Shown piece after piece: positions 8,121-61,603 of a stretch of DNA of 64,000 nucleotides. How positions within the stretch are numbered: the first letter of the stretch is position 1; each line of letters opens with the position of its first letter. Source of the stretch: a virus (Duplodnaviria > Caudoviricetes). The stretch is from the IMG/VR virus record IMGVR_UViG_2765235998_000001, positions 1-64,000 of that record, one strand, 5' to 3'. A program made the position numbers and the translations under genes. The notes under the pieces are model-generated. The model worked only from the letters and a program-made list of their open reading frames with translations. It searched no databases and was not told where the DNA came from.

Positions 8121-8294
8121 GTGGACCCGATGAAGCGCATGTTCGTTGTCGGCCTGACAGTTCCCGCTGCCGTGACCGGCATCGTGGTACTGGCCGTGTG
8201 GCCCAACTCGCTCATGCAGTGGCTGATCGTGGCTGCGACTCCCTTCGTGACATCGTCTGCTGTTGCCATGGCGTACGCCTACCGGTCTCGGTGA
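8121..8294 (+). CDS. Small two-TM membrane protein
   Basis: RBS AGGAG; two hydrophobic segments. Confidence 0.45.
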   Translation: MDPMKRMFVVGLTVPAAVTGIVVLAVWPNSLMQWLIVAATPFVTSSAVAMAYAYRSR

Positions 8295-8302
8295 AGCAGG
8301 CC

Positions 8303-9448
8303 ATGAACGAGCACGACGAGGTAGTGGACGCGGAGCTGGTCGACAACCTGCCCGCAATCCCCGAAGACCGCGCGCCCGCCGTCCCCCTGACGGAAGAGGA
8401 CCCGGACGCCTGGCTGTCCCCCGAAGCACAGGAAGACGTCCAGGCAGGCATCCCAGAACAGACCACCAAGGCCTACCAGGGCGACATGGACCGCTTCGCC
8501 GAATGGTGCGCCACGGTCCGCCGTCGGCCCCTGCCCGCCGCCCCCCAGACCGTGACCGAATACCTCTCCTACCTGAAGCGCACCCCGCGGCCGCGCACCG
8601 GCCGCCCGTACGGGCCCAAGACGATGGACCGCATCATCGCCTCCATCCGCTCCTCCCACCGCGCCGCCGGATACCAGCCCCCCGACACCATGGGCGCCCG
8701 CAAAGTCGTCGCCGGCTACCGCGAGCAGCTCGCCCTCGCCAAAGACCCCGCCTCCCAACCCCGCAAGGCCAGCCCCGCCGACCGCACCGTCCTCCGCGCC
8801 GCGCTCGCCGAACTGGACCGCACCACCCTGGCCGGGAAGCGGGACGCCGCCCTCATGCTCCTCGGGCACGCCCTCGCCTCCCGCGGCAGCGAACTCGTCC
8901 CCCTTGACTGGCCGGGCAGCTTCACCGAGCTCCCCGGCGGCGGCTTCCAGGTGCGGGTGTACCGCAAGAAGCGCAAGCTCTGGCAGACCCCCGACGTCCC
9001 CCTGGACCCCGACCCCGAACTCTGCGCCGTCCGCGCCGTCCGTGCCCTGGTTGCCGCCCTCGCCGAGAACGATCACCACACCGGGGCCCTCTTCCTCCGC
9101 ATGGACCGCTGGGGTTACCTCGCACCCCCCATGCACCGCAAGGGGAAGCCCATCGGCGACCCCGACGGCCGCATGACCATCGAAGCCGCCTCCGACATCG
9201 TCCAGCGCTCCATCGAACGCACCGGCCTCCCCGGACGGTGGCGCTCCCACTCCTCCCGCCGCGGCTTCGTCAAGTCCGCCCGGGCCGCGGGCGTCGACAT
9301 CGTGCAGATCGGTCGGCACGGCGGCTGGGACGACAAGTCGAAGGCCCTCATCGGCTACGTCGACGAGGAGGATGCCGCGGGCGAGAACAACCCCCTGGCG
9401 CAGATCGGGCGCAAGGCCACCGAAGAGCCTGAAGGGACCGACCTGTGA
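8303..9448 (+). CDS. Tyrosine recombinase, Cre/Xer-like, with SAM-like N-terminal domain
   Basis: T..AY..D..F..W; RDAAL..LG....R.SEL; HSSRRG; GGW and C-terminal Tyr (IGYV). Confidence 0.88.
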   Translation: MNEHDEVVDAELVDNLPAIPEDRAPAVPLTEEDPDAWLSPEAQEDVQAGIPEQTTKAYQGDMDRFAEWCATVRRRPLPAAPQTVTEYLSYLKRTPRPRTGRPYGPKTMDRIIASIRSSHRAAGYQPPDTMGARKVVAGYREQLALAKDPASQPRKASPADRTVLRAALAELDRTTLAGKRDAALMLLGHALASRGSELVPLDWPGSFTELPGGGFQVRVYRKKRKLWQTPDVPLDPDPELCAVRAVRALVAALAENDHHTGALFLRMDRWGYLAPPMHRKGKPIGDPDGRMTIEAASDIVQRSIERTGLPGRWRSHSSRRGFVKSARAAGVDIVQIGRHGGWDDKSKALIGYVDEEDAAGENNPLAQIGRKATEEPEGTDL

Positions 9449-26973: not shown

Positions 26974-27231
26974 ATGAGCATCACCAGCCCCGAGACGACG
27001 ACCACCAGCCCCGACGACAACCCGTCCTACCGGGACGGCCGCATCGACGGCGAACTCGCCGCCATCACCCGCCTGTCCTCCCGCCGCGCCCACGCCCGCG
27101 CCTCCATGGCCGCCCAGTACGACCAGGCCTACGCCGACGGCTACATGGACGGCTTCCTCGACCAGACCGCCGCCAACGCCGCCCACCGCCTCAAGGCGCT
27201 CCTCGCAACCAGCCGGAAGGACCCCCAGTGA
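26974..27231 (+). CDS. Hypothetical protein
   Basis: Y.DG motifs; RBS GGAG. Confidence 0.6.
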   Translation: MSITSPETTTTSPDDNPSYRDGRIDGELAAITRLSSRRAHARASMAAQYDQAYADGYMDGFLDQTAANAAHRLKALLATSRKDPQ

Positions 27232-27890
27232 AAACCCGCATAGCCCAGGCCGCCTTCGCCCTGACCCTCACCGCGGCCGCCGTCATCGCCGCCCCCCACC
27301 AGGCCCACGCCGCCACCGGCCCGGTCGTCTCCGGCACCGGCTGGAAGCTCCAGGCACCCCGCATCACCCACATCGACACGCAACCCCTGACGATCGCGTT
27401 CCACGACACAACCAGCCGCACCCGGCTCACCCCCTACGTGAAGAACGTCGCCGCGGAACTCACCTCGTACGGCATCCCGGTCACCGTCTCCAACCGCATC
27501 GTGCCCACCGCCGTCGGCAAGTGCCCGCCCAGACACACCATCAGCTACCGGTGGATCAGCAAGCCCAACCCCGACAGGCCCAACCAGTCCTTCACCGGCA
27601 CCTGCTCCCTCAAGGCCGCCACCTACAGCGCCTACGTCTACATCAACAGCGACTACTGGGCGCCCGGCCGCCGCTTCCACGAGTGGCAGCGCATGAACGT
27701 GATCTGGCACGAAAGCGGCCACGCCGTCGGACTCGCCCACCCGACCACGTGCCCCCGCGACAAGGCCGGCCTCCAGCCCCTCATGTGCGGCAACCCCTAC
27801 AAGGACCTCCGCGACCGCCGCTTCTCGTCGCAGGACGTGACCGGTCTGCGCCGCCTGGTCCTCAACCGCGCCTACTACCCGCCGGCATGA
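27228..27890 (+). CDS. Secreted metzincin zinc metalloprotease (matrixin-like)
   Basis: Signal peptide ending AHA; HESGHAVGLAH (HExxHxxGxxH); Met-turn PLM; D..GL..L. Confidence 0.85.
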   Translation: MKTRIAQAAFALTLTAAAVIAAPHQAHAATGPVVSGTGWKLQAPRITHIDTQPLTIAFHDTTSRTRLTPYVKNVAAELTSYGIPVTVSNRIVPTAVGKCPPRHTISYRWISKPNPDRPNQSFTGTCSLKAATYSAYVYINSDYWAPGRRFHEWQRMNVIWHESGHAVGLAHPTTCPRDKAGLQPLMCGNPYKDLRDRRFSSQDVTGLRRLVLNRAYYPPA

Positions 27891-36442: not shown

Positions 36443-36837
36443 GCGTGTGGGGCACGATCTTCGACCTCGAGGACAATCCGCCGTACCGGTACGAGGGCTC
36501 GCACGTTCTGCCGTCCGTGGACGGACCGCGAGATCCCGGCTGCCCCGTGCAGCTGGCGGAAGTCCCGTCACACATCACCCGGGACGGGCGTGACGACCAG
36601 CCTGAGGATGGGGCGCCGTGGCCGTGGCTGCGGGCCTCTCTGGGCCGGGAGGACGCCGTGCTGGACCGGTCGCAGGTTCAGGGCCTGTGGGAGGCCATGG
36701 GCGCCTGGCTCGAGCAGACCAAGCCCCCACCACCCCCGGCCCGGCATGTCGGTGGCGGGGCGAACGCGGAGGACTGCCCGGGCTGCAAGGGCACCAACCC
36801 GCCGTACCCGTTCATCTGCCCCGGGGAGGACCGGTGA
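36439..36837 (+). CDS. Hypothetical protein with C-terminal Zn-finger
   Basis: Y.GSHVLP; NAEDCP.C...PYPFICPG. Confidence 0.65.
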   Translation: MSVWGTIFDLEDNPPYRYEGSHVLPSVDGPRDPGCPVQLAEVPSHITRDGRDDQPEDGAPWPWLRASLGREDAVLDRSQVQGLWEAMGAWLEQTKPPPPPARHVGGGANAEDCPGCKGTNPPYPFICPGEDR

Positions 36838-37481
36838 GCGGGCCGGGGCGGGCGCCGGTGGAGTGGGCGGACAGGGAGCGCCGCAACGCCAGGAAGGGGG
36901 TACGGCGGAAGGTCCTGGCCTGGGCCGGCCTGAACCCTGCGGCGAAGCGCGCGGACGACCTGATGGTCCGGGCGCGGCATGGTGCGGTGGGCGAGGAGTG
37001 GACTGCCGCGCTGCTCGCGCAACTCCCGGCGGGCTGGACGGTGTTCCACGGACGGAAGCTGTCCGGCTTCAGCAACGACTACGACCACGTCCTCATCTCC
37101 CCCTGCGGGACCGCGGTGGTGACGCTGGATTCGAAGCGCTGGCATGCCGGCCTCGAGACGGTACTGGTGCGGGGCCGGGTGTGTTGCGGTCGGGAGGACC
37201 GGCATAAGCAGGTCACGGCGGTGGCCCGGTATGCGGGCCGGTTGGAGCGGGCGTTGAATCTGCCGGGGGTTCAGGTGTTGCCGCTGCTGGTGGTTCACGG
37301 GTCGCGGGTGCGGGGCGGTTTCCTGTCGGCGCGTGTGCCCGGCTGGGAGGGTGTGGTGCATGTGCTGGGCCCGGAGTATCTGGTGCCGACGCTGGTCGCG
37401 GCTCCGCGGGGGGTGCATGTGGGGCGTGCTGCTGCGCTGGTCGCGCATGTGGACCGGGTTCTTCCGGCCGGGCCGGGGTGA
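36834..37481 (+). CDS. NERD nuclease-related domain protein
   Basis: GA.GE..TA.LL, W.VFH, DHVLI.P, LDSK.W. Confidence 0.82.
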   Translation: MSGPGRAPVEWADRERRNARKGVRRKVLAWAGLNPAAKRADDLMVRARHGAVGEEWTAALLAQLPAGWTVFHGRKLSGFSNDYDHVLISPCGTAVVTLDSKRWHAGLETVLVRGRVCCGREDRHKQVTAVARYAGRLERALNLPGVQVLPLLVVHGSRVRGGFLSARVPGWEGVVHVLGPEYLVPTLVAAPRGVHVGRAAALVAHVDRVLPAGPG

Positions 37482-37818
37482 GGCGTACGGTGGGCGGGCG
37501 TTACCGCCTGGGGGGCACCCGTTGTGCGGGCCGTCAGTCTTCGGACTGGCGGCCCGCTTTCGTGCGTTCCGGGCCCGGGCGCAGTGATGCCCCGGTCTCG
37601 ACGGGGGTTTGCGAGGCCGGGGCGTACGGCAAGTGTGGCATGCGGGACTGACAGTGGGCTGTGATGCGGGGCCGACCGGTCCTCCGCCGACAGAGGACCG
37701 GCCACCATGCCCGGCACGCCTACCCCGTCTTGCCGTTCTGGCACGCGGAGTTGGGCGTGGGGTCTGGGGTGCGCCGCTTCCCCTCGGGCACACTCCAGGC
37801 CCCACGCATTTACCGTGG

Positions 37819-38106
37819 CTATCCCCAGGTGGTGTCGAGGGGTGTGAGCAGGTTGCCGACGGTGTCGGTGACGGGCTGCACGATGGGGGTGGTGTCGATG
37901 GGCGGGGTTCCCCAGGTGGTGTCGTTCGCGGTGTCGGGGGCACCCCACGTGGTGTCCGGGGGTCCGGTGATCAGGTCGGCGGCCAGGGCCGTTCCGGTGG
38001 CGGCTGCGGCGGCGAGGCTGAGGCCAGCGGCGATACGGCGCAGGCGGCTCAGGCGGCGTAGTGGGGCGGTGGCGGGTCGGGTGGCTCGGTGTCGTCCTTG
38101 GCTCAC
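37819..38106 (-). CDS. Secreted pro-peptide with three DTTWG repeats, the last at the C-terminus
   Basis: Arg-rich n-region, Ala-rich h-region, ALA cleavage site; PDTTWG, NDTTWG, LDTTWG-stop; RBS GGAGG. Confidence 0.8.
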   Translation of the reverse strand: MSQGRHRATRPATAPLRRLSRLRRIAAGLSLAAAAATGTALAADLITGPPDTTWGAPDTANDTTWGTPPIDTTPIVQPVTDTVGNLLTPLDTTWG

Positions 38107-38384
38107 GGGTGTCCTCCGGTGGTTGGTTGTCGTGAAAAAGATAGTGGGGCGTCTGGCCCGGTTCTCGTGCTCCCGTCCGCCTGCTGCGATCCCTCAACTG
38201 CGGTCCCGTTTCCTGGCAGTGGACGGGTGCAGTGCGAGAGAAGGAGGGGGGAGTACGAGCGTCGGGGGACGCCCCATGAGGATGCTGCCGTAGGCTGATT
38301 TCACTCTCAACGGTTATCGGATGCTTGTTTGTGCATTGCTTCTTCGTGCAGTGCGCCGCCTTGTTTTGACGGGGGATCATAGCG

Positions 38385-39476
38385 TTGGCCATGGATTGCA
38401 CAGGCGGTGACAGACCTGTTCTGTCGCAGGGCGCGGTGGACGCATTCGCGCTGATCGCAGCGGGTTTGCCGGTCCCGGAGGGGGATCAGGATTGCGTCAA
38501 CGAATTGATCACCTGGGGATACGTGGTGATCGATTCCGAGCACGGAAACAGACCAGTGGCACTCGACCCGGACGACGTCTCCCGCCGGCTCCTCGAACAG
38601 GAACTGCGTGAAGCGAACCGGCGCGTCCAGAAGATGACGGTTCTTCCGTCGATCACGCAGCAATTGGCGGGCCCTTTCCAGCGGGCCAAGTTGCGTGCGG
38701 GCGGGGGATCCGAGTACATCGCGGACGCGGCCGTGGTCAATGCCCGCCTGGACGATGTGGTGGGCTCGGCGGAGTGGGAGATCCTCGCCGCGCAACCGGG
38801 CGGGCCGCGTACGGAGGTTCAGCTGAACCGTTCCGTCGAACGCGACACCGCCGCCTTGGAGCGGGGGGTCGCGAAGCGGACGCTGTACCGGGCGACGGTC
38901 CGCGACAATGCGATCACCTGCCAGTACGCGCGCACCATGACCACCCGCCCGACGGGCAAGTCGGCTGAGTTCCGTACGCTGGTCGGCCCGTTCGAGCGGG
39001 CCATCATCGTCGACCGGCGGGTGGCGTTCATCTCCAACCACCTGGTGGCCGGCGCCCCCGAGCATGCGGCCTGGCAGGTCACCGACCCCGGTGTGATCGC
39101 CTACATGGTCGCGGAGTTCGACGCGAAGTGGCGGCGCGCGGACCCGTGGCACGGGGAACTCGCCCGCCGCGGCCGGGAGGAAGTCGACACGGTGTCCGGG
39201 CCGGCCGCGGTCCGCACCACGCCACGCCAGCGGGAGATCCTGCGGGACATTGTGGTGGGGCGTGCTCAGCAGGCGACGGCGCAGCGGTTGGGGATTTCGT
39301 TGCGGACGCTGGGTGTGGAGATCGCGGAGTTGAAGTCGTTGTTCGACGCGGAGAGTCTGCCGGAGCTGGCATTCCGGTGGGCGTTGTCTCCGGACCGGCT
39401 GGTCGACGACACCGACCACACCACCGACGTGGGCGGGGCGGGGGCAGAGGGCGAGGGCGAGGAAGCGGCGGCCTGA
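38385..39476 (+). CDS. LuxR-family regulator with central TrmB/PLD-like putative sensor domain
   Basis: A..EIL..QPGG.R, RGV..RTLY, IIVDRRVAFI, F...W.RA.PW, then T.RQREIL..IV.G......A.RLGIS.RT. Confidence 0.85.
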   Translation: MAMDCTGGDRPVLSQGAVDAFALIAAGLPVPEGDQDCVNELITWGYVVIDSEHGNRPVALDPDDVSRRLLEQELREANRRVQKMTVLPSITQQLAGPFQRAKLRAGGGSEYIADAAVVNARLDDVVGSAEWEILAAQPGGPRTEVQLNRSVERDTAALERGVAKRTLYRATVRDNAITCQYARTMTTRPTGKSAEFRTLVGPFERAIIVDRRVAFISNHLVAGAPEHAAWQVTDPGVIAYMVAEFDAKWRRADPWHGELARRGREEVDTVSGPAAVRTTPRQREILRDIVVGRAQQATAQRLGISLRTLGVEIAELKSLFDAESLPELAFRWALSPDRLVDDTDHTTDVGGAGAEGEGEEAAA

Positions 39477-59305: not shown

Positions 59306-61603
59306 GTGGCCGTCACCCAGACGACACCCGCCCCCGCCGCCGACGGCCCCCGCCTCGTTCCCGCCCGCTCCATCCGCCGCCGCGCCCGCCTGGAGCGCCT
59401 CACCTACGGTGCTGCCGCCCTCGGTATCACCATCGCCCCCCACAACCCCGACTGGTGGCCCGCCCACCTCGGCGCCGCAGGCCTCGCCGCCGGAACCCTC
59501 TGGCGCCTCTTCGACAAGTGGGGCCAGACCCCCCTCGGCCAGCCCCACGCAGGCTTCCTCAAGACCTGCCAGAAAGCCCTCCCGGTCCTCACCGGCGCCG
59601 GCATCTACCTCACCAACCTCCTCATGCCCGGCACCCCGTGGTGGGAGTACGCCGACGGCGCCGCCTGGGCCGCCCTGATGGGCCTCACCACGCCCCTCAC
59701 CCACGCCGCGAACCTCCTCGCCCTCGTCCCCACCCCCGACCCGGAGACGCCCGAGCTCGAGGCCGCAGCCCCCGCACAACCCGCGAACTTCGCCGAGTAC
59801 CGGGCCATGCAGTGGACGGCCTCCGACGCCGGCCGCGACACCCAACTCACAGGCGTCCGCCAGTACTGCGACAACCAGGGCCGCCCCCTGCCCGACTTCG
59901 ACGCCATCGTCGTCGCCCAGCAGGGCAAGCCCGTCCCCACCCCCAACCCCACCACCCTGGCCGCCGCCTTCGACATGCCCGAAGGCACCGTCACCCTCCA
60001 CCCCATCGACGGCTCCGGACCCGGCCGCAAACTCCTCACCGCACGCCCCACCGAACACGCCACCCAGGCCATCCAGAACAACGACCCCGTCCACCAGATC
60101 TGGAACCAGAAGATCGCCACCCCCGGCGGCGGCGCCCCCGGCATGCTCCTCACCAGCTACCGCGCAGAGCCCAACCGCATCGCCCTGCGCGTCGAAGCCC
60201 CCGAAGACCAGCTCATCCAGCTCAACCAGAAACTCATCGCCCGAGGCTTCGGCTACAAGGACACCAGCCTCGTCATGGTCGAAACCGACAGCCTCGGCGA
60301 CGGCCTCATCTCCCTCTACAAGGAGCACCCCCTGCTGAACGTCCGCGAAGCCACCCGCGAAGACCTCACCATGGCCCCCGACGGCACCATCGCACTCGGT
60401 CAGCAGCCCGACGCCCGCACCGGCCGCGTCCCCCTCTACGACCCGCAGATGGGCGCCATCACCGACCTGTACGTCGGCGCCCCCGGAGCCGGAAAGTCCG
60501 TCACCCTGCTCCACGTCATCGCCGCCGAACGCCTCTCCGGCATCGTCTCCATCGTCGCCGACGCCCAGGACGGCATGTCCCTTCCCGAGGTCGACGGGCG
60601 CGTCTTCCACTTCGGCAAGGGCATCGCCGCCACCGCCGCGACCCTCGCCGCCGCCAACGACCTCGGCAAATACCGGGAGAAGATCAGCGCCGAGAACGGC
60701 TGGGGCTCCTTCGAGATCGGCAACCCCTGGCCGCTCGTCAACGTCACCCTCGACGAACTGAACCGCATCCTGTCCGCCGACGCCGTCGTACCCCGCCCCT
60801 TCCGCAAGTGGGTCACCGGCCTCGTCGGAGACACCCAGTCCACCGGCCGCAAGCTCGGCCTCGGCATCCGCTTCGCCGCCCAGTCCATCCACCTCGCCGA
60901 CCTCGGCGACAAGGACCGCATCCGCGCCAACGCCAAGAACGGCACCGTCTGGCTCGGCCGCACCAACTCCTCCACCACCCAGCACATGGCCCGCGACGGC
61001 GTCCTGCCCCCCGGCGTCGAAATCGCCCCCATCCCCCGCTACTTCGGAACCGGCGGCAACAACGCCATCGACGCCGCGTTCGAAGGCAAGGAAGCCAAGC
61101 ACGGCCCGATCACCGCGGGCATGGCCAACATCATCAACGGCGGCAGCCTCTTCACTAACCGCACCTGGTTCGCCCGCAAGGAGAACAAGACCTACCCGCA
61201 CCTCATCAACCTCATGGAATCCAGCCCCATCCCGTGGCTGACCGAGCAGGAGGTCGTCGTCTTCGGGATCTCCTACCAGCGGTGGCTGGCCTTCGCCGAG
61301 GCACTCCTGGCCGGAGAAGGCGAAGAGGGAATCCAGGAGGCCGTGGACGCGCACCAGGGCGTCGTGGGCAAGCAGGCCGCGTTCCTCGCCGACGACGACG
61401 AAGACGACCAGCCGTCCGCCGGCTCCATCAAGGACCGCATCCTCGACCTCCTCGCCGACGGCCAGCCCTGGCCCCTCAAAGACGTCCGCCACCGCCTCGA
61501 CGACGTCGCCCCCGGCAGCGTCAACAACGCCATGACCGAACTCCGCGAAGCCGGCCACGTCCAGCCTGCCGGATCCCGCGGCACCTACCAGATCACCAAC
61601 TAA
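59306..61603 (+). CDS. traB: TraB-like FtsK/SpoIIIE conjugative DNA translocase
   Basis: N-terminal TMs, Walker A GAPGAGKS, Walker B VTLDE, GRKLG...AAQ, C-terminal wHTH. Confidence 0.8.
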   Translation: MAVTQTTPAPAADGPRLVPARSIRRRARLERLTYGAAALGITIAPHNPDWWPAHLGAAGLAAGTLWRLFDKWGQTPLGQPHAGFLKTCQKALPVLTGAGIYLTNLLMPGTPWWEYADGAAWAALMGLTTPLTHAANLLALVPTPDPETPELEAAAPAQPANFAEYRAMQWTASDAGRDTQLTGVRQYCDNQGRPLPDFDAIVVAQQGKPVPTPNPTTLAAAFDMPEGTVTLHPIDGSGPGRKLLTARPTEHATQAIQNNDPVHQIWNQKIATPGGGAPGMLLTSYRAEPNRIALRVEAPEDQLIQLNQKLIARGFGYKDTSLVMVETDSLGDGLISLYKEHPLLNVREATREDLTMAPDGTIALGQQPDARTGRVPLYDPQMGAITDLYVGAPGAGKSVTLLHVIAAERLSGIVSIVADAQDGMSLPEVDGRVFHFGKGIAATAATLAAANDLGKYREKISAENGWGSFEIGNPWPLVNVTLDELNRILSADAVVPRPFRKWVTGLVGDTQSTGRKLGLGIRFAAQSIHLADLGDKDRIRANAKNGTVWLGRTNSSTTQHMARDGVLPPGVEIAPIPRYFGTGGNNAIDAAFEGKEAKHGPITAGMANIINGGSLFTNRTWFARKENKTYPHLINLMESSPIPWLTEQEVVVFGISYQRWLAFAEALLAGEGEEGIQEAVDAHQGVVGKQAAFLADDDEDDQPSAGSIKDRILDLLADGQPWPLKDVRHRLDDVAPGSVNNAMTELREAGHVQPAGSRGTYQITN

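Follow-up and report, generated by a model that had tools for sequence, protein, structure and literature searches.

A divergent pair of genes on a Streptomyces phage-plasmid encodes a small peptide precursor of the exported type and a transcriptional regulator, and the two genes form a regulator and secreted-peptide module that is real, widespread, and undescribed. The pair lies in the 64,000-nucleotide stretch of viral DNA analyzed here (positions 1 to 64,000 of IMG/VR record IMGVR_UViG_2765235998_000001), which we refer to as the window. The precursor, of 95 amino acids, carries three exact copies of the pentapeptide DTTWG, and the regulator, of 363 amino acids, joins a phospholipase D (PLD)-like central domain to a C-terminal LuxR-type helix-turn-helix (HTH). 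Relatives of the two genes stand side by side at most of the loci that we compared, a pairing far from chance. We think it possible, with a probability of roughly 40%, that the pair is a signaling cassette resembling the arbitrium and Phr systems but with an unrelated receptor. Searches of the open literature and of abstracts, with subscription journals outside their scope, returned nothing on the motif, on the pairing, or on peptide signaling in actinophages.

The peptide gene occupies positions 37819 to 38106 on the minus strand, with a GTG start codon, a GGAGGA-type ribosome-binding site at 38112-38117, and a stop codon at 37819-37821. Its product begins with a long, basic N-terminus followed by an Ala-rich hydrophobic stretch that ends in ALA|AD at residue 42, and residues 1 to 42 (37981-38106, minus strand) are predicted to form an export signal with a basic n-region and an Ala-rich h-region; this call was made with a heuristic of our own rather than with a dedicated predictor. 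The 53 residues that follow are rich in Pro and Thr and carry all three DTTWG copies, at residues 51-55 (37942-37956), 62-66 (37909-37923), and 91-95 (37822-37836), all on the minus strand. The last copy forms the C-terminus and abuts the stop codon, in agreement with the reading of this DNA that preceded our analysis (here called the original prediction), which had been made from the letters and open reading frames (ORFs) alone. The DNA encoding copies 2 and 3 is identical, and that of copy 1 differs by two synonymous changes. G+C content by codon position in the ORF is 0.68/0.68/0.83. In an alignment of 22 relatives, the D-T-T-W-G-A-P unit, the C-terminal D-T-x-W, and the hydrophobic core are invariant or nearly so. 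D51, T52, and W54 of copy 1 are invariant, as are the A56 and P57 that follow it and D91, T92, and W94 of copy 3, while the spacers vary in length and sequence and the middle copy, itself variable, is missing from some members. Searches of Pfam and NCBIfam with the peptide yielded no match above threshold. A chance or artefactual ORF was rejected, as the frame is intact in the 22 relatives and the linkage controls described below hold.

The original prediction had raised the question of whether homologous regulators lack such peptide neighbors. We searched for ORFs of 30 to 170 amino acids with an export-type N-terminus (by the same heuristic) and a D-x-x-W motif, lying within 1.5 kb of a regulator gene. 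An adjacent ORF of this kind was present at 63 of 68 regulator loci in reference genomes, on all 18 of the regulator-bearing IMG/VR contigs (18/18), and at 16 of the best 29 loci from 400 congeneric genomes. Two loci were added by eye to the first set (L031 and L032, whose E-H-Q-W-T form falls outside the D-x-x-W pattern) and two to the last, where 11 loci have no peptide gene. In a distance control on the same loci, 55 strict candidates lay in the 200 kb near a regulator versus 2 in the 312 kb farther off, and these two are true family members about 1.6 kb from their regulators. Translation of the 11-Mb host genome in six frames yielded only 13 ORFs that match an export signal plus a C-terminal D..W, and three of these lie within 1.5 kb of one of its seven regulator paralogues: the DTTWG peptide of the window and two others, DTVWD on contig 7 and DPIWG on contig 19. 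The other 10 candidates resemble non-coding frames, and this type of peptide was never seen in the host genome apart from a regulator.

Peptide and regulator have remained linked over the long term, through changes of arrangement. In 72 rows of gene-order data, the peptide gene is divergent and upstream of the regulator in 31 and convergent and downstream in 37, and in both orders it is on the opposite strand. The divergent order is found on Streptomyces plasmids, phages, and some chromosomes, and the convergent order in Kitasatospora, Nocardioides, and uncultured Actinomycetota. Chymera, a temperate Streptomyces phage of 34.7 kb, is the only record in a set of 50,697 phage entries to have a relative of the regulator. 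Its gp29 is 29% identical to the regulator, and the divergent gp30 has the form signal-AQA|DPGWG...DPGWG-stop. From gp30 the integrase is two genes away and the immunity repressor three. Assignment of gp30 to the "WGxxGxxG" family NF041742 was rejected, the match reaching 15.9 bits, far under the cut-off of 35. Neighbors of the cassette vary by locus and include genes for a NERD-domain protein, phosphoenolpyruvate carboxykinase (PEPCK), DnaJ, an M20 peptidase, and integrase; in the handful of loci that were annotated, no modifying enzyme, dedicated transporter, or kinase constantly adjoins the pair. Chromosomal cassettes follow the gene for GTP-dependent PEPCK in two loci of the Nocardioides type and that for DnaJ in Kitasatospora purpeofusca. 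Because these chromosomal members adjoin housekeeping genes, the cassette is neither specific to phages nor a phage invention.

The precursors vary between lineages in a regular way. Among 91 unique precursors of 42 to 105 amino acids, 68 stop within one residue of the last Trp of the motif, and 60 are multi-copy, with two to four units whose 4-mers are identical within the precursor in 52 of the 60. Copies within one precursor thus co-vary, and 25 motif variants distinguish lineages, among them DTTW, DTAW, DTGW, DTWW, DSVW, DTIW, DTSW, and DPGW. Phage-plasmids carry DTTWG, DTAWG, DTGWG, DTWWG, DTHWG, and DSTWG; DSVW is found on Streptomyces chromosomes, DTIWN in Kitasatospora, and DIGWG, DVGWG, and DPGWD elsewhere. 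The mature parts, of about 15 to 55 residues, are of low complexity and have no anchor. In many members the first unit abuts the predicted signal-peptidase site, as in Chymera (AQA|DPGWG), Nocardioides (AQA|DTSWG), and Kitasatospora (SAD|DTIWN), so that export would expose one unit at the N-terminus just as the stop codon exposes another at the C-terminus. In Nocardioides-type peptides, of 42 to 69 amino acids, a single D-T-[SGN]-W directly adjoins the signal, and behind it come CxxC or CxxxC and then a basic tail; these members may form a variant closed by a disulfide. Some loci appear to be decaying: the precursor at 3446-3682 of L009 (the same as L084) has no C-terminal unit, that at 3558-3704 of L007 has a single DTCWC unit, and the regulator at 3857-4915 of L008 has lost its N-terminal winged helix and is accompanied by no peptide gene.

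The regulator gene (38385-39476, plus strand) begins with a TTG codon that is kept in 16 aligned relatives; an ATG two codons downstream is not kept. An AlphaFold2 model built with 38 homologues (mean predicted local distance difference test score, 83.3; predicted template modeling score, 0.47) consists of a winged helix (residues ~15-60), a long helix of 44 residues (62-105), an alpha/beta domain (~109-255), a disordered linker, and a C-terminal four-helix HTH (~280-339). In Foldseek searches, the winged helix, long helix, and alpha/beta domain together matched archaeal TrmBL2 (5bpd_C; E, 6e-12) and TrmB (3qph_A; E, 8.5e-9; and 2f5t_X; E, 2.2e-5), and the alpha/beta domain matched proteins of the PLD fold, namely Nuc (1byr; E, 1.4e-7), Zucchini, and PLD3/4. 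The model and these matches support the proposal of a TrmB- or PLD-like domain followed by a LuxR HTH, as well as the claim that the receptor is structurally unrelated to the tetratricopeptide repeat (TPR) receptors of the RRNPP family; no TPR family was detected in the regulator with Pfam or NCBIfam and none appeared among the Foldseek matches. The match of residues 279-329 to the GerE/LuxR HTH family (PF00196) has an E value of 0.0013 and, at 18.7 bits, lies under the cut-off of 23.5; many homologues have a precomputed PF00196 match, and the model has helices at 280-339. The Pfam TrmB models (PF01978 and PF11495) did not match the regulator, a relative at locus L027 reaching 16.8 bits against the 22.2 required by PF11495; PF01978 is present in some clusters of look-alike proteins. 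Pfam likewise detected no autoinducer-binding domain, the related NCBIfam match being weak and confined to the HTH.

The regulator has neither the HxK(x)4D catalytic motif nor any strongly hydrophobic, membrane-type segment. Since it also has a fold of the TrmB/PLD type, it is predicted to be a cytoplasmic one-component regulator whose PLD-like domain is non-catalytic. Across 70 paired regulators the conserved residues fall almost entirely between positions 129 and 249, that is, in the PLD-like domain, and include R142, R153, R160, R165, R173, R197, R205, Y168, D210, and W249, with R307 in the HTH. The family is large. A word-indexed search returned 275 proteins, clusters at 50% identity number 215 at an E value of ≤1e-30 and 1,039 at ≤1e-10, and of 400 genomes sampled from the same genus, 370 contain at least one match with an E value of ≤1e-20.

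The two genes face away from each other across 278 bp (38107-38384), the AT-rich region of about 280 bp that the original prediction had pointed out; its G+C content is 60.8%, compared with 69.2% for the window. Blocks within it are conserved among 16 phage-plasmid loci whose regulators share just ~46 to 62% identity. Among these blocks is an inverted repeat (9 nt, 100% complementary, with 114 nt separating the arms). The left arm, GGGGCGTC (38146-38153), is a candidate operator half-site lying close to the promoter of the peptide gene and reads GGGGCGYC in 12 loci of the phage-plasmid clade, and the right arm, GACGCCCC (38268-38275), lies within a near-invariant block of 23 nt, GTACGAGCGTCGGGGGACGCCCC (38253-38275). 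The hexamer TAGGCT (38291-38296, plus strand), conserved in the alignment as TAG/TAC-N-N-T, is a candidate -10 element of the regulator promoter, assigned by comparison with the Streptomyces consensus TAnnnT; a scan for sigma-70 promoters found no site. In the regulator leader, two tandem 14-bp boxes of the form TGCTT-N4-GTGCA with a 15-bp period (38322-38350, coordinates read from the sequence) correspond in relatives to TGCG-N6-CGCA palindromes, one or two at each of 18 loci of the phage-plasmid clade. The spacer has no Rfam match, and RNAalifold predicts, on either strand, pairs that are nearly all invariant and show no clear covariation; we therefore tentatively regard the blocks as the promoters and operators of a divergent unit under autoregulation rather than as a structured RNA. 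No further targets of the regulator were found: GGGGACGCCCC with ≤1 mismatch has 6 matches versus 10 expected, and the perfect TGCG-N6-CGCA box has 0 in the window.

Taken as a signaling cassette, the pair would work as follows. The precursor would be exported by means of its N-terminal signal and cleaved after ALA at residue 42, and proteases of the host or of the element would trim the remaining 53 residues to short oligopeptides bearing DTTWG, the C-terminal copy being exposed already by the stop codon. An oligopeptide permease of the host, whose genome encodes 14 SBP_bac_5 (OppA/DppA-type) binding proteins, would re-import these oligopeptides, which would then be bound by the cytoplasmic regulator in its non-catalytic PLD-like domain. 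The bound regulator would change its affinity for operators lying between both genes, giving autoregulation, and for further targets on the phage-plasmid, and expression would come to track the density of cells carrying the same peptide type. We infer each of these steps, from export, cleavage, and trimming through uptake and binding to the operators and a link with lysis, lysogeny, or transfer. The best fit is a Phr/AimP-like pairing of pro-peptide with receptor, because the precursor is of the exported type and free of domains, because a unit of four to five residues is the only conserved element of its mature part, and because the copies are identical within a precursor and the units specific to lineages. 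The preference for a C-terminal unit, the strict linkage to cytoplasmic regulators with a ligand-type domain, the lysogeny-gene neighborhood in Chymera, and the lack of a linked enzyme, kinase, or transporter argue in the same direction. Judged from sequence conservation, the set formed by the conserved Arg residues, Y168, D210, and W249 would be suited to a ligand that presents an Asp, a Trp, and a carboxyl terminus as its invariant features.

Peptide communication in actinobacteria was the core of the original prediction, and it stands in part. The conserved peptide gene with its 22 relatives, the architecture of the regulator, and the test of its neighbors speak for it. The chromosomal members and the presence of the regulator family in 370 of the 400 genomes show that the module is not confined to phages, and orphan regulators, with no adjacent peptide gene, make up 4 of the 7 in the host and 11 of the 29 sampled. 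These orphans count against signaling by the cassette, and other observations do so as well. Alignment columns 146, 149, 150, and 152 of the regulator, which share a helix with the conserved R153 and D154, are among those with the highest mutual information with motif type, but the signal reflects a single clade split and a wider table shows no clean convergence, and we therefore rejected these columns as evidence, by themselves, of receptor-ligand covariation. Mapped on the regulator tree, the motif requires 18 changes versus 39.8 when shuffled, a match that does not discriminate between explanations because linked genes agree anyway; were the peptide a mere target of the regulator, linkage and co-inheritance would be expected just as much. 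The arginine-rich pocket of the PLD fold is kept in 14 orphan regulators that have no peptide, and a small anionic metabolite could bind it equally well. TrmBL2, the best structural match, is not known to respond to a ligand. Finally, one processing rule cannot fit all precursors, since in the Nocardioides type the unit is not C-terminal and a pair of Cys residues follows it. Because the steps past the gene map are inferred, the tree match is uninformative, and the orphans keep the pocket, we hold the signaling interpretation at about 40%.

Some of these same observations would be expected if the peptide were instead the secreted output of the regulator, with its target elsewhere. Under this explanation, a somewhat doubtful one that is nonetheless the chief competitor, the regulator responds to some other cue, such as a small anionic metabolite or a nucleotide bound in its arginine-rich PLD-like pocket, and turns on a peptide that acts outside the cell on the envelope, on a receptor, or on another cell, without ever coming back to the regulator. 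The divergent arrangement of a regulator and its target around a conserved, shared control region fits well, as do the many orphan paralogues and the strong conservation of the arginine-rich pocket in regulators with and without a peptide partner. Furthermore, the PLD-fold relatives detected by Foldseek (nucleases, PLD3/4, and TrmB) bind phosphate-bearing ligands or sugars. What this explanation leaves unaccounted for is the combination of identical copies in 52 of 60 multi-copy precursors with 25 lineage variants, which would call for some other specific receptor, and none is linked to the pair. An effector would also have to act through a short, low-complexity mature part (~15 to 55 residues) with no anchor, and in the host genome peptides of this type never occur away from a regulator, the 10 other candidates among the 13 resembling non-coding frames.

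The anatomy of the precursor is equally that of a true extracellular signal detected by a different sensor, a membrane receptor or kinase encoded elsewhere, with the adjacent regulator driving or tuning production of the pheromone. Firmicutes offer well-known cases of pheromone peptides detected at the membrane, such as Agr and ComCDE. We regard this arrangement as improbable, since no kinase or membrane receptor is linked to the pair in the annotated loci and the 34.7-kb Chymera genome carries the pair alone, where a private pherotype with no receptor would be useless to the phage. It is very improbable that the units are cores of a ribosomally synthesized and post-translationally modified peptide (RiPP), modified at Trp, Asp, or Thr by enzymes encoded elsewhere or closed by a disulfide in the Nocardioides type. 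Multi-core precursors with conserved short cores do exist among RiPPs, and the CxxC or CxxxC that follows the unit in Nocardioides-type members would be in keeping with a modified product, but no modifying enzyme is conserved beside the pair in the handful of annotated loci, the N-termini are Sec-type signals rather than RiPP leaders, and no precursor family of Pfam or NCBIfam matches. The Pro/Thr-rich spacers resemble the linkers of secreted actinobacterial proteins, but a small protein with a structural role or an association with the envelope, or else a conserved ORF that takes no part in signaling, is scarcely credible given the lack of an anchor, a domain, or any repeat beyond the five-residue unit, the limitation of conservation to the unit and the signal, and the strict tie to one regulator family.

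The window represents the first 64 kb of a contig of 88,864 bp, and the remaining 25 kb encodes a portal protein (PHROGs; E, 1e-100), a large terminase (8.4e-45), a major head protein (1.6e-73), a tape measure protein of 1,936 amino acids (3.4e-189), and a minor tail protein (1.7e-173). Relatives of the regulator are found on many contigs of 85 to 95 kb and on complete circular plasmids, including pSAM1 of S. ambofaciens and CP108843.1 (91,572 bp), on which capsid, terminase, ParA, DnaB, and DciA genes are annotated, and contigs of this kind are also filed as viral in IMG/VR. Virion and packaging genes, related circular plasmids, and viral IMG/VR contigs together identify the context of the cassette as a Streptomyces phage-plasmid. 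None of the sequencing runs listed as containing this DNA was an RNA data set, and each contained a small share of it. Within it, the pair lies between two converging gene blocks, as had been predicted: ORFs up to 37481 are on the plus strand and those from 39515 on the minus strand. Counterparts of only 19 of the 101 called ORFs of the contig are present on CP108843.1, and this common set consists of genes for replication or regulation and a handful of others. At an E value of 1e-5, none of the genes for the head and for packaging is matched there, and the match of the minor tail protein is partial. Such phage-plasmids are mosaic, and the regulator belongs to their small common backbone. The idea of a hypervariable cassette was rejected, as the regulator and its counterpart on CP108843.1 share 62% identity, slightly above the median of 57% for 15 shared ORFs.

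Some features of the surroundings are recorded here in their own right. Convergent with the peptide gene is a gene for a NERD-domain protein (36618-37481, plus strand; PF08378; E, 5.9e-9), and a NERD gene likewise lies near the cassette of CP108843.1. Just 3' of the peptide stop codon, the stretch 37748-37816 is predicted to form a hairpin, has weak, chance-level matches to models of microRNA precursors, and may act as a bidirectional terminator between the peptide and NERD genes. The ORF at 27228-27890 (plus strand) has sub-threshold matches to metalloproteases around a zinc-site region (Peptidase_M10, 16.9 bits against a threshold of 24) and no PHROG; with Pfam matches below threshold and no PHROG, a role for it as the peptide-maturation protease is unsupported. 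The label of FtsK/TraB ATPase for the 765-amino-acid product of 59306-61603 (plus strand) was not confirmed, as no Pfam match at an E value of ≤0.01 was found and a weak PHROG match to a regulator covers its C-terminus. The 416-amino-acid ORF at 8198-9448 (plus strand) has weak matches to integrase-family PHROGs (E, ~1e-6), and a tyrosine recombinase is annotated on CP108843.1. On contig 7 of the host chromosome, regulator paralogues form a tandem array at positions 228940-234231 (five matches, four large called ORFs), and only the last of them is paired with a divergent gene for an exported peptide that has DTVWD at its end; an ORF of 865 amino acids about 1 kb from this array presumably encodes ClpB, judging from its N-terminal sequence.

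Peptide signaling through cytoplasmic receptors is held to be a trait of Firmicutes, and a paper on RRNPP detection (PMC10075063) states that actinobacteria as a rule signal with small molecules that enzymes synthesize. A term search of a June 2026 review of phage communication (PMC13389391) found no mention of Streptomyces or Actinobacteria. The signaling interpretation would therefore have consequences beyond this element. If it is correct, the regulators would be a second, independently evolved class of receptor for peptide quorum sensing, actinophages and phage-plasmids would possess an arbitrium-like decision device, and orthogonal pairs of peptides and regulators could be put to use in Streptomyces. 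The peptides would also be candidates for the long-sought substrates that oligopeptide permeases import during Streptomyces development. Unmodified, commercially available pentapeptides would serve as candidate ligands, so that the idea is cheap to test, and phage Chymera on S. venezuelae offers a tractable model. In its widest form, the proposal is that Actinomycetota possess a phylum-wide system of gene-encoded peptide quorum sensing unrelated to RRNPP, in which Sec-exported precursors give rise to D-x-x-W oligopeptides that are taken back up and recognized by the PLD-like domain of TrmB-like/LuxR regulators, and in which temperate phages such as Chymera and phage-plasmids of about 90 kb, with private pherotypes (DTTWG here), gauge the number of nearby hyphae already harboring the same element and so bias lysis, plasmid-state lysogeny, or spread. 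We consider this wider proposal unlikely.

Of the known systems, arbitrium (AimP-AimR-AimX of SPbeta-like Bacillus phages) offers the closest parallels. Both concern temperate elements, in which a small exported precursor is encoded beside a cytoplasmic DNA-binding regulator, a short conserved unit stands at the C-terminal end of the precursor, and the units differ by lineage; in Chymera the pair adjoins an integrase and repressor module. The cassette described here differs in having a receptor that is TrmB-like/PLD-like with a LuxR HTH rather than built of TPRs, a precursor with one to four copies of the unit, and genes on opposite strands; no aimX-like target was identified, the host phylum is Actinomycetota, and the cassette is known from sequence alone. 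With Rap-Phr and the other RRNPP systems (Rap, Rgg, NprR, PlcR, and PrgX) it shares a Sec-type pro-peptide, whose active part would here be a C-terminal penta- to heptapeptide, the proposed logic of re-import by an Opp-type permease, a distribution over chromosomes, plasmids, and phages, and the occurrence of orphan receptors. Some Phr precursors also contain repeated units, and SHP pheromones likewise begin with Asp or Glu. The regulator itself has no TPR domain, and sequence similarity is absent.

Two further comparisons concern the regulator. Archaeal TrmB and TrmBL2, its best structural matches, have the same winged helix, long helix of the dimerization type, and PLD-like alpha/beta domain, but TrmB carries a C-terminal sugar-binding barrel where the regulator has a LuxR-type HTH; the thresholds of the Pfam TrmB models are unmet, and the present family is bacterial and paired with a peptide gene. 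Phages are also said, in work by Silpe and Bassler from 2019, to encode LuxR-type receptors for acyl-homoserine lactones of their hosts. These too are phage regulators in which a LuxR HTH is joined to a sensor domain thought to read a diffusible signal, but they use an autoinducer-binding domain and a small molecule made by the host, whereas the regulator described here has no such domain and its candidate signal is encoded by the element. In its proposed working the cassette resembles arbitrium and Rap-Phr, yet it is a member of neither family, because the TPR receptor that defines them is absent.

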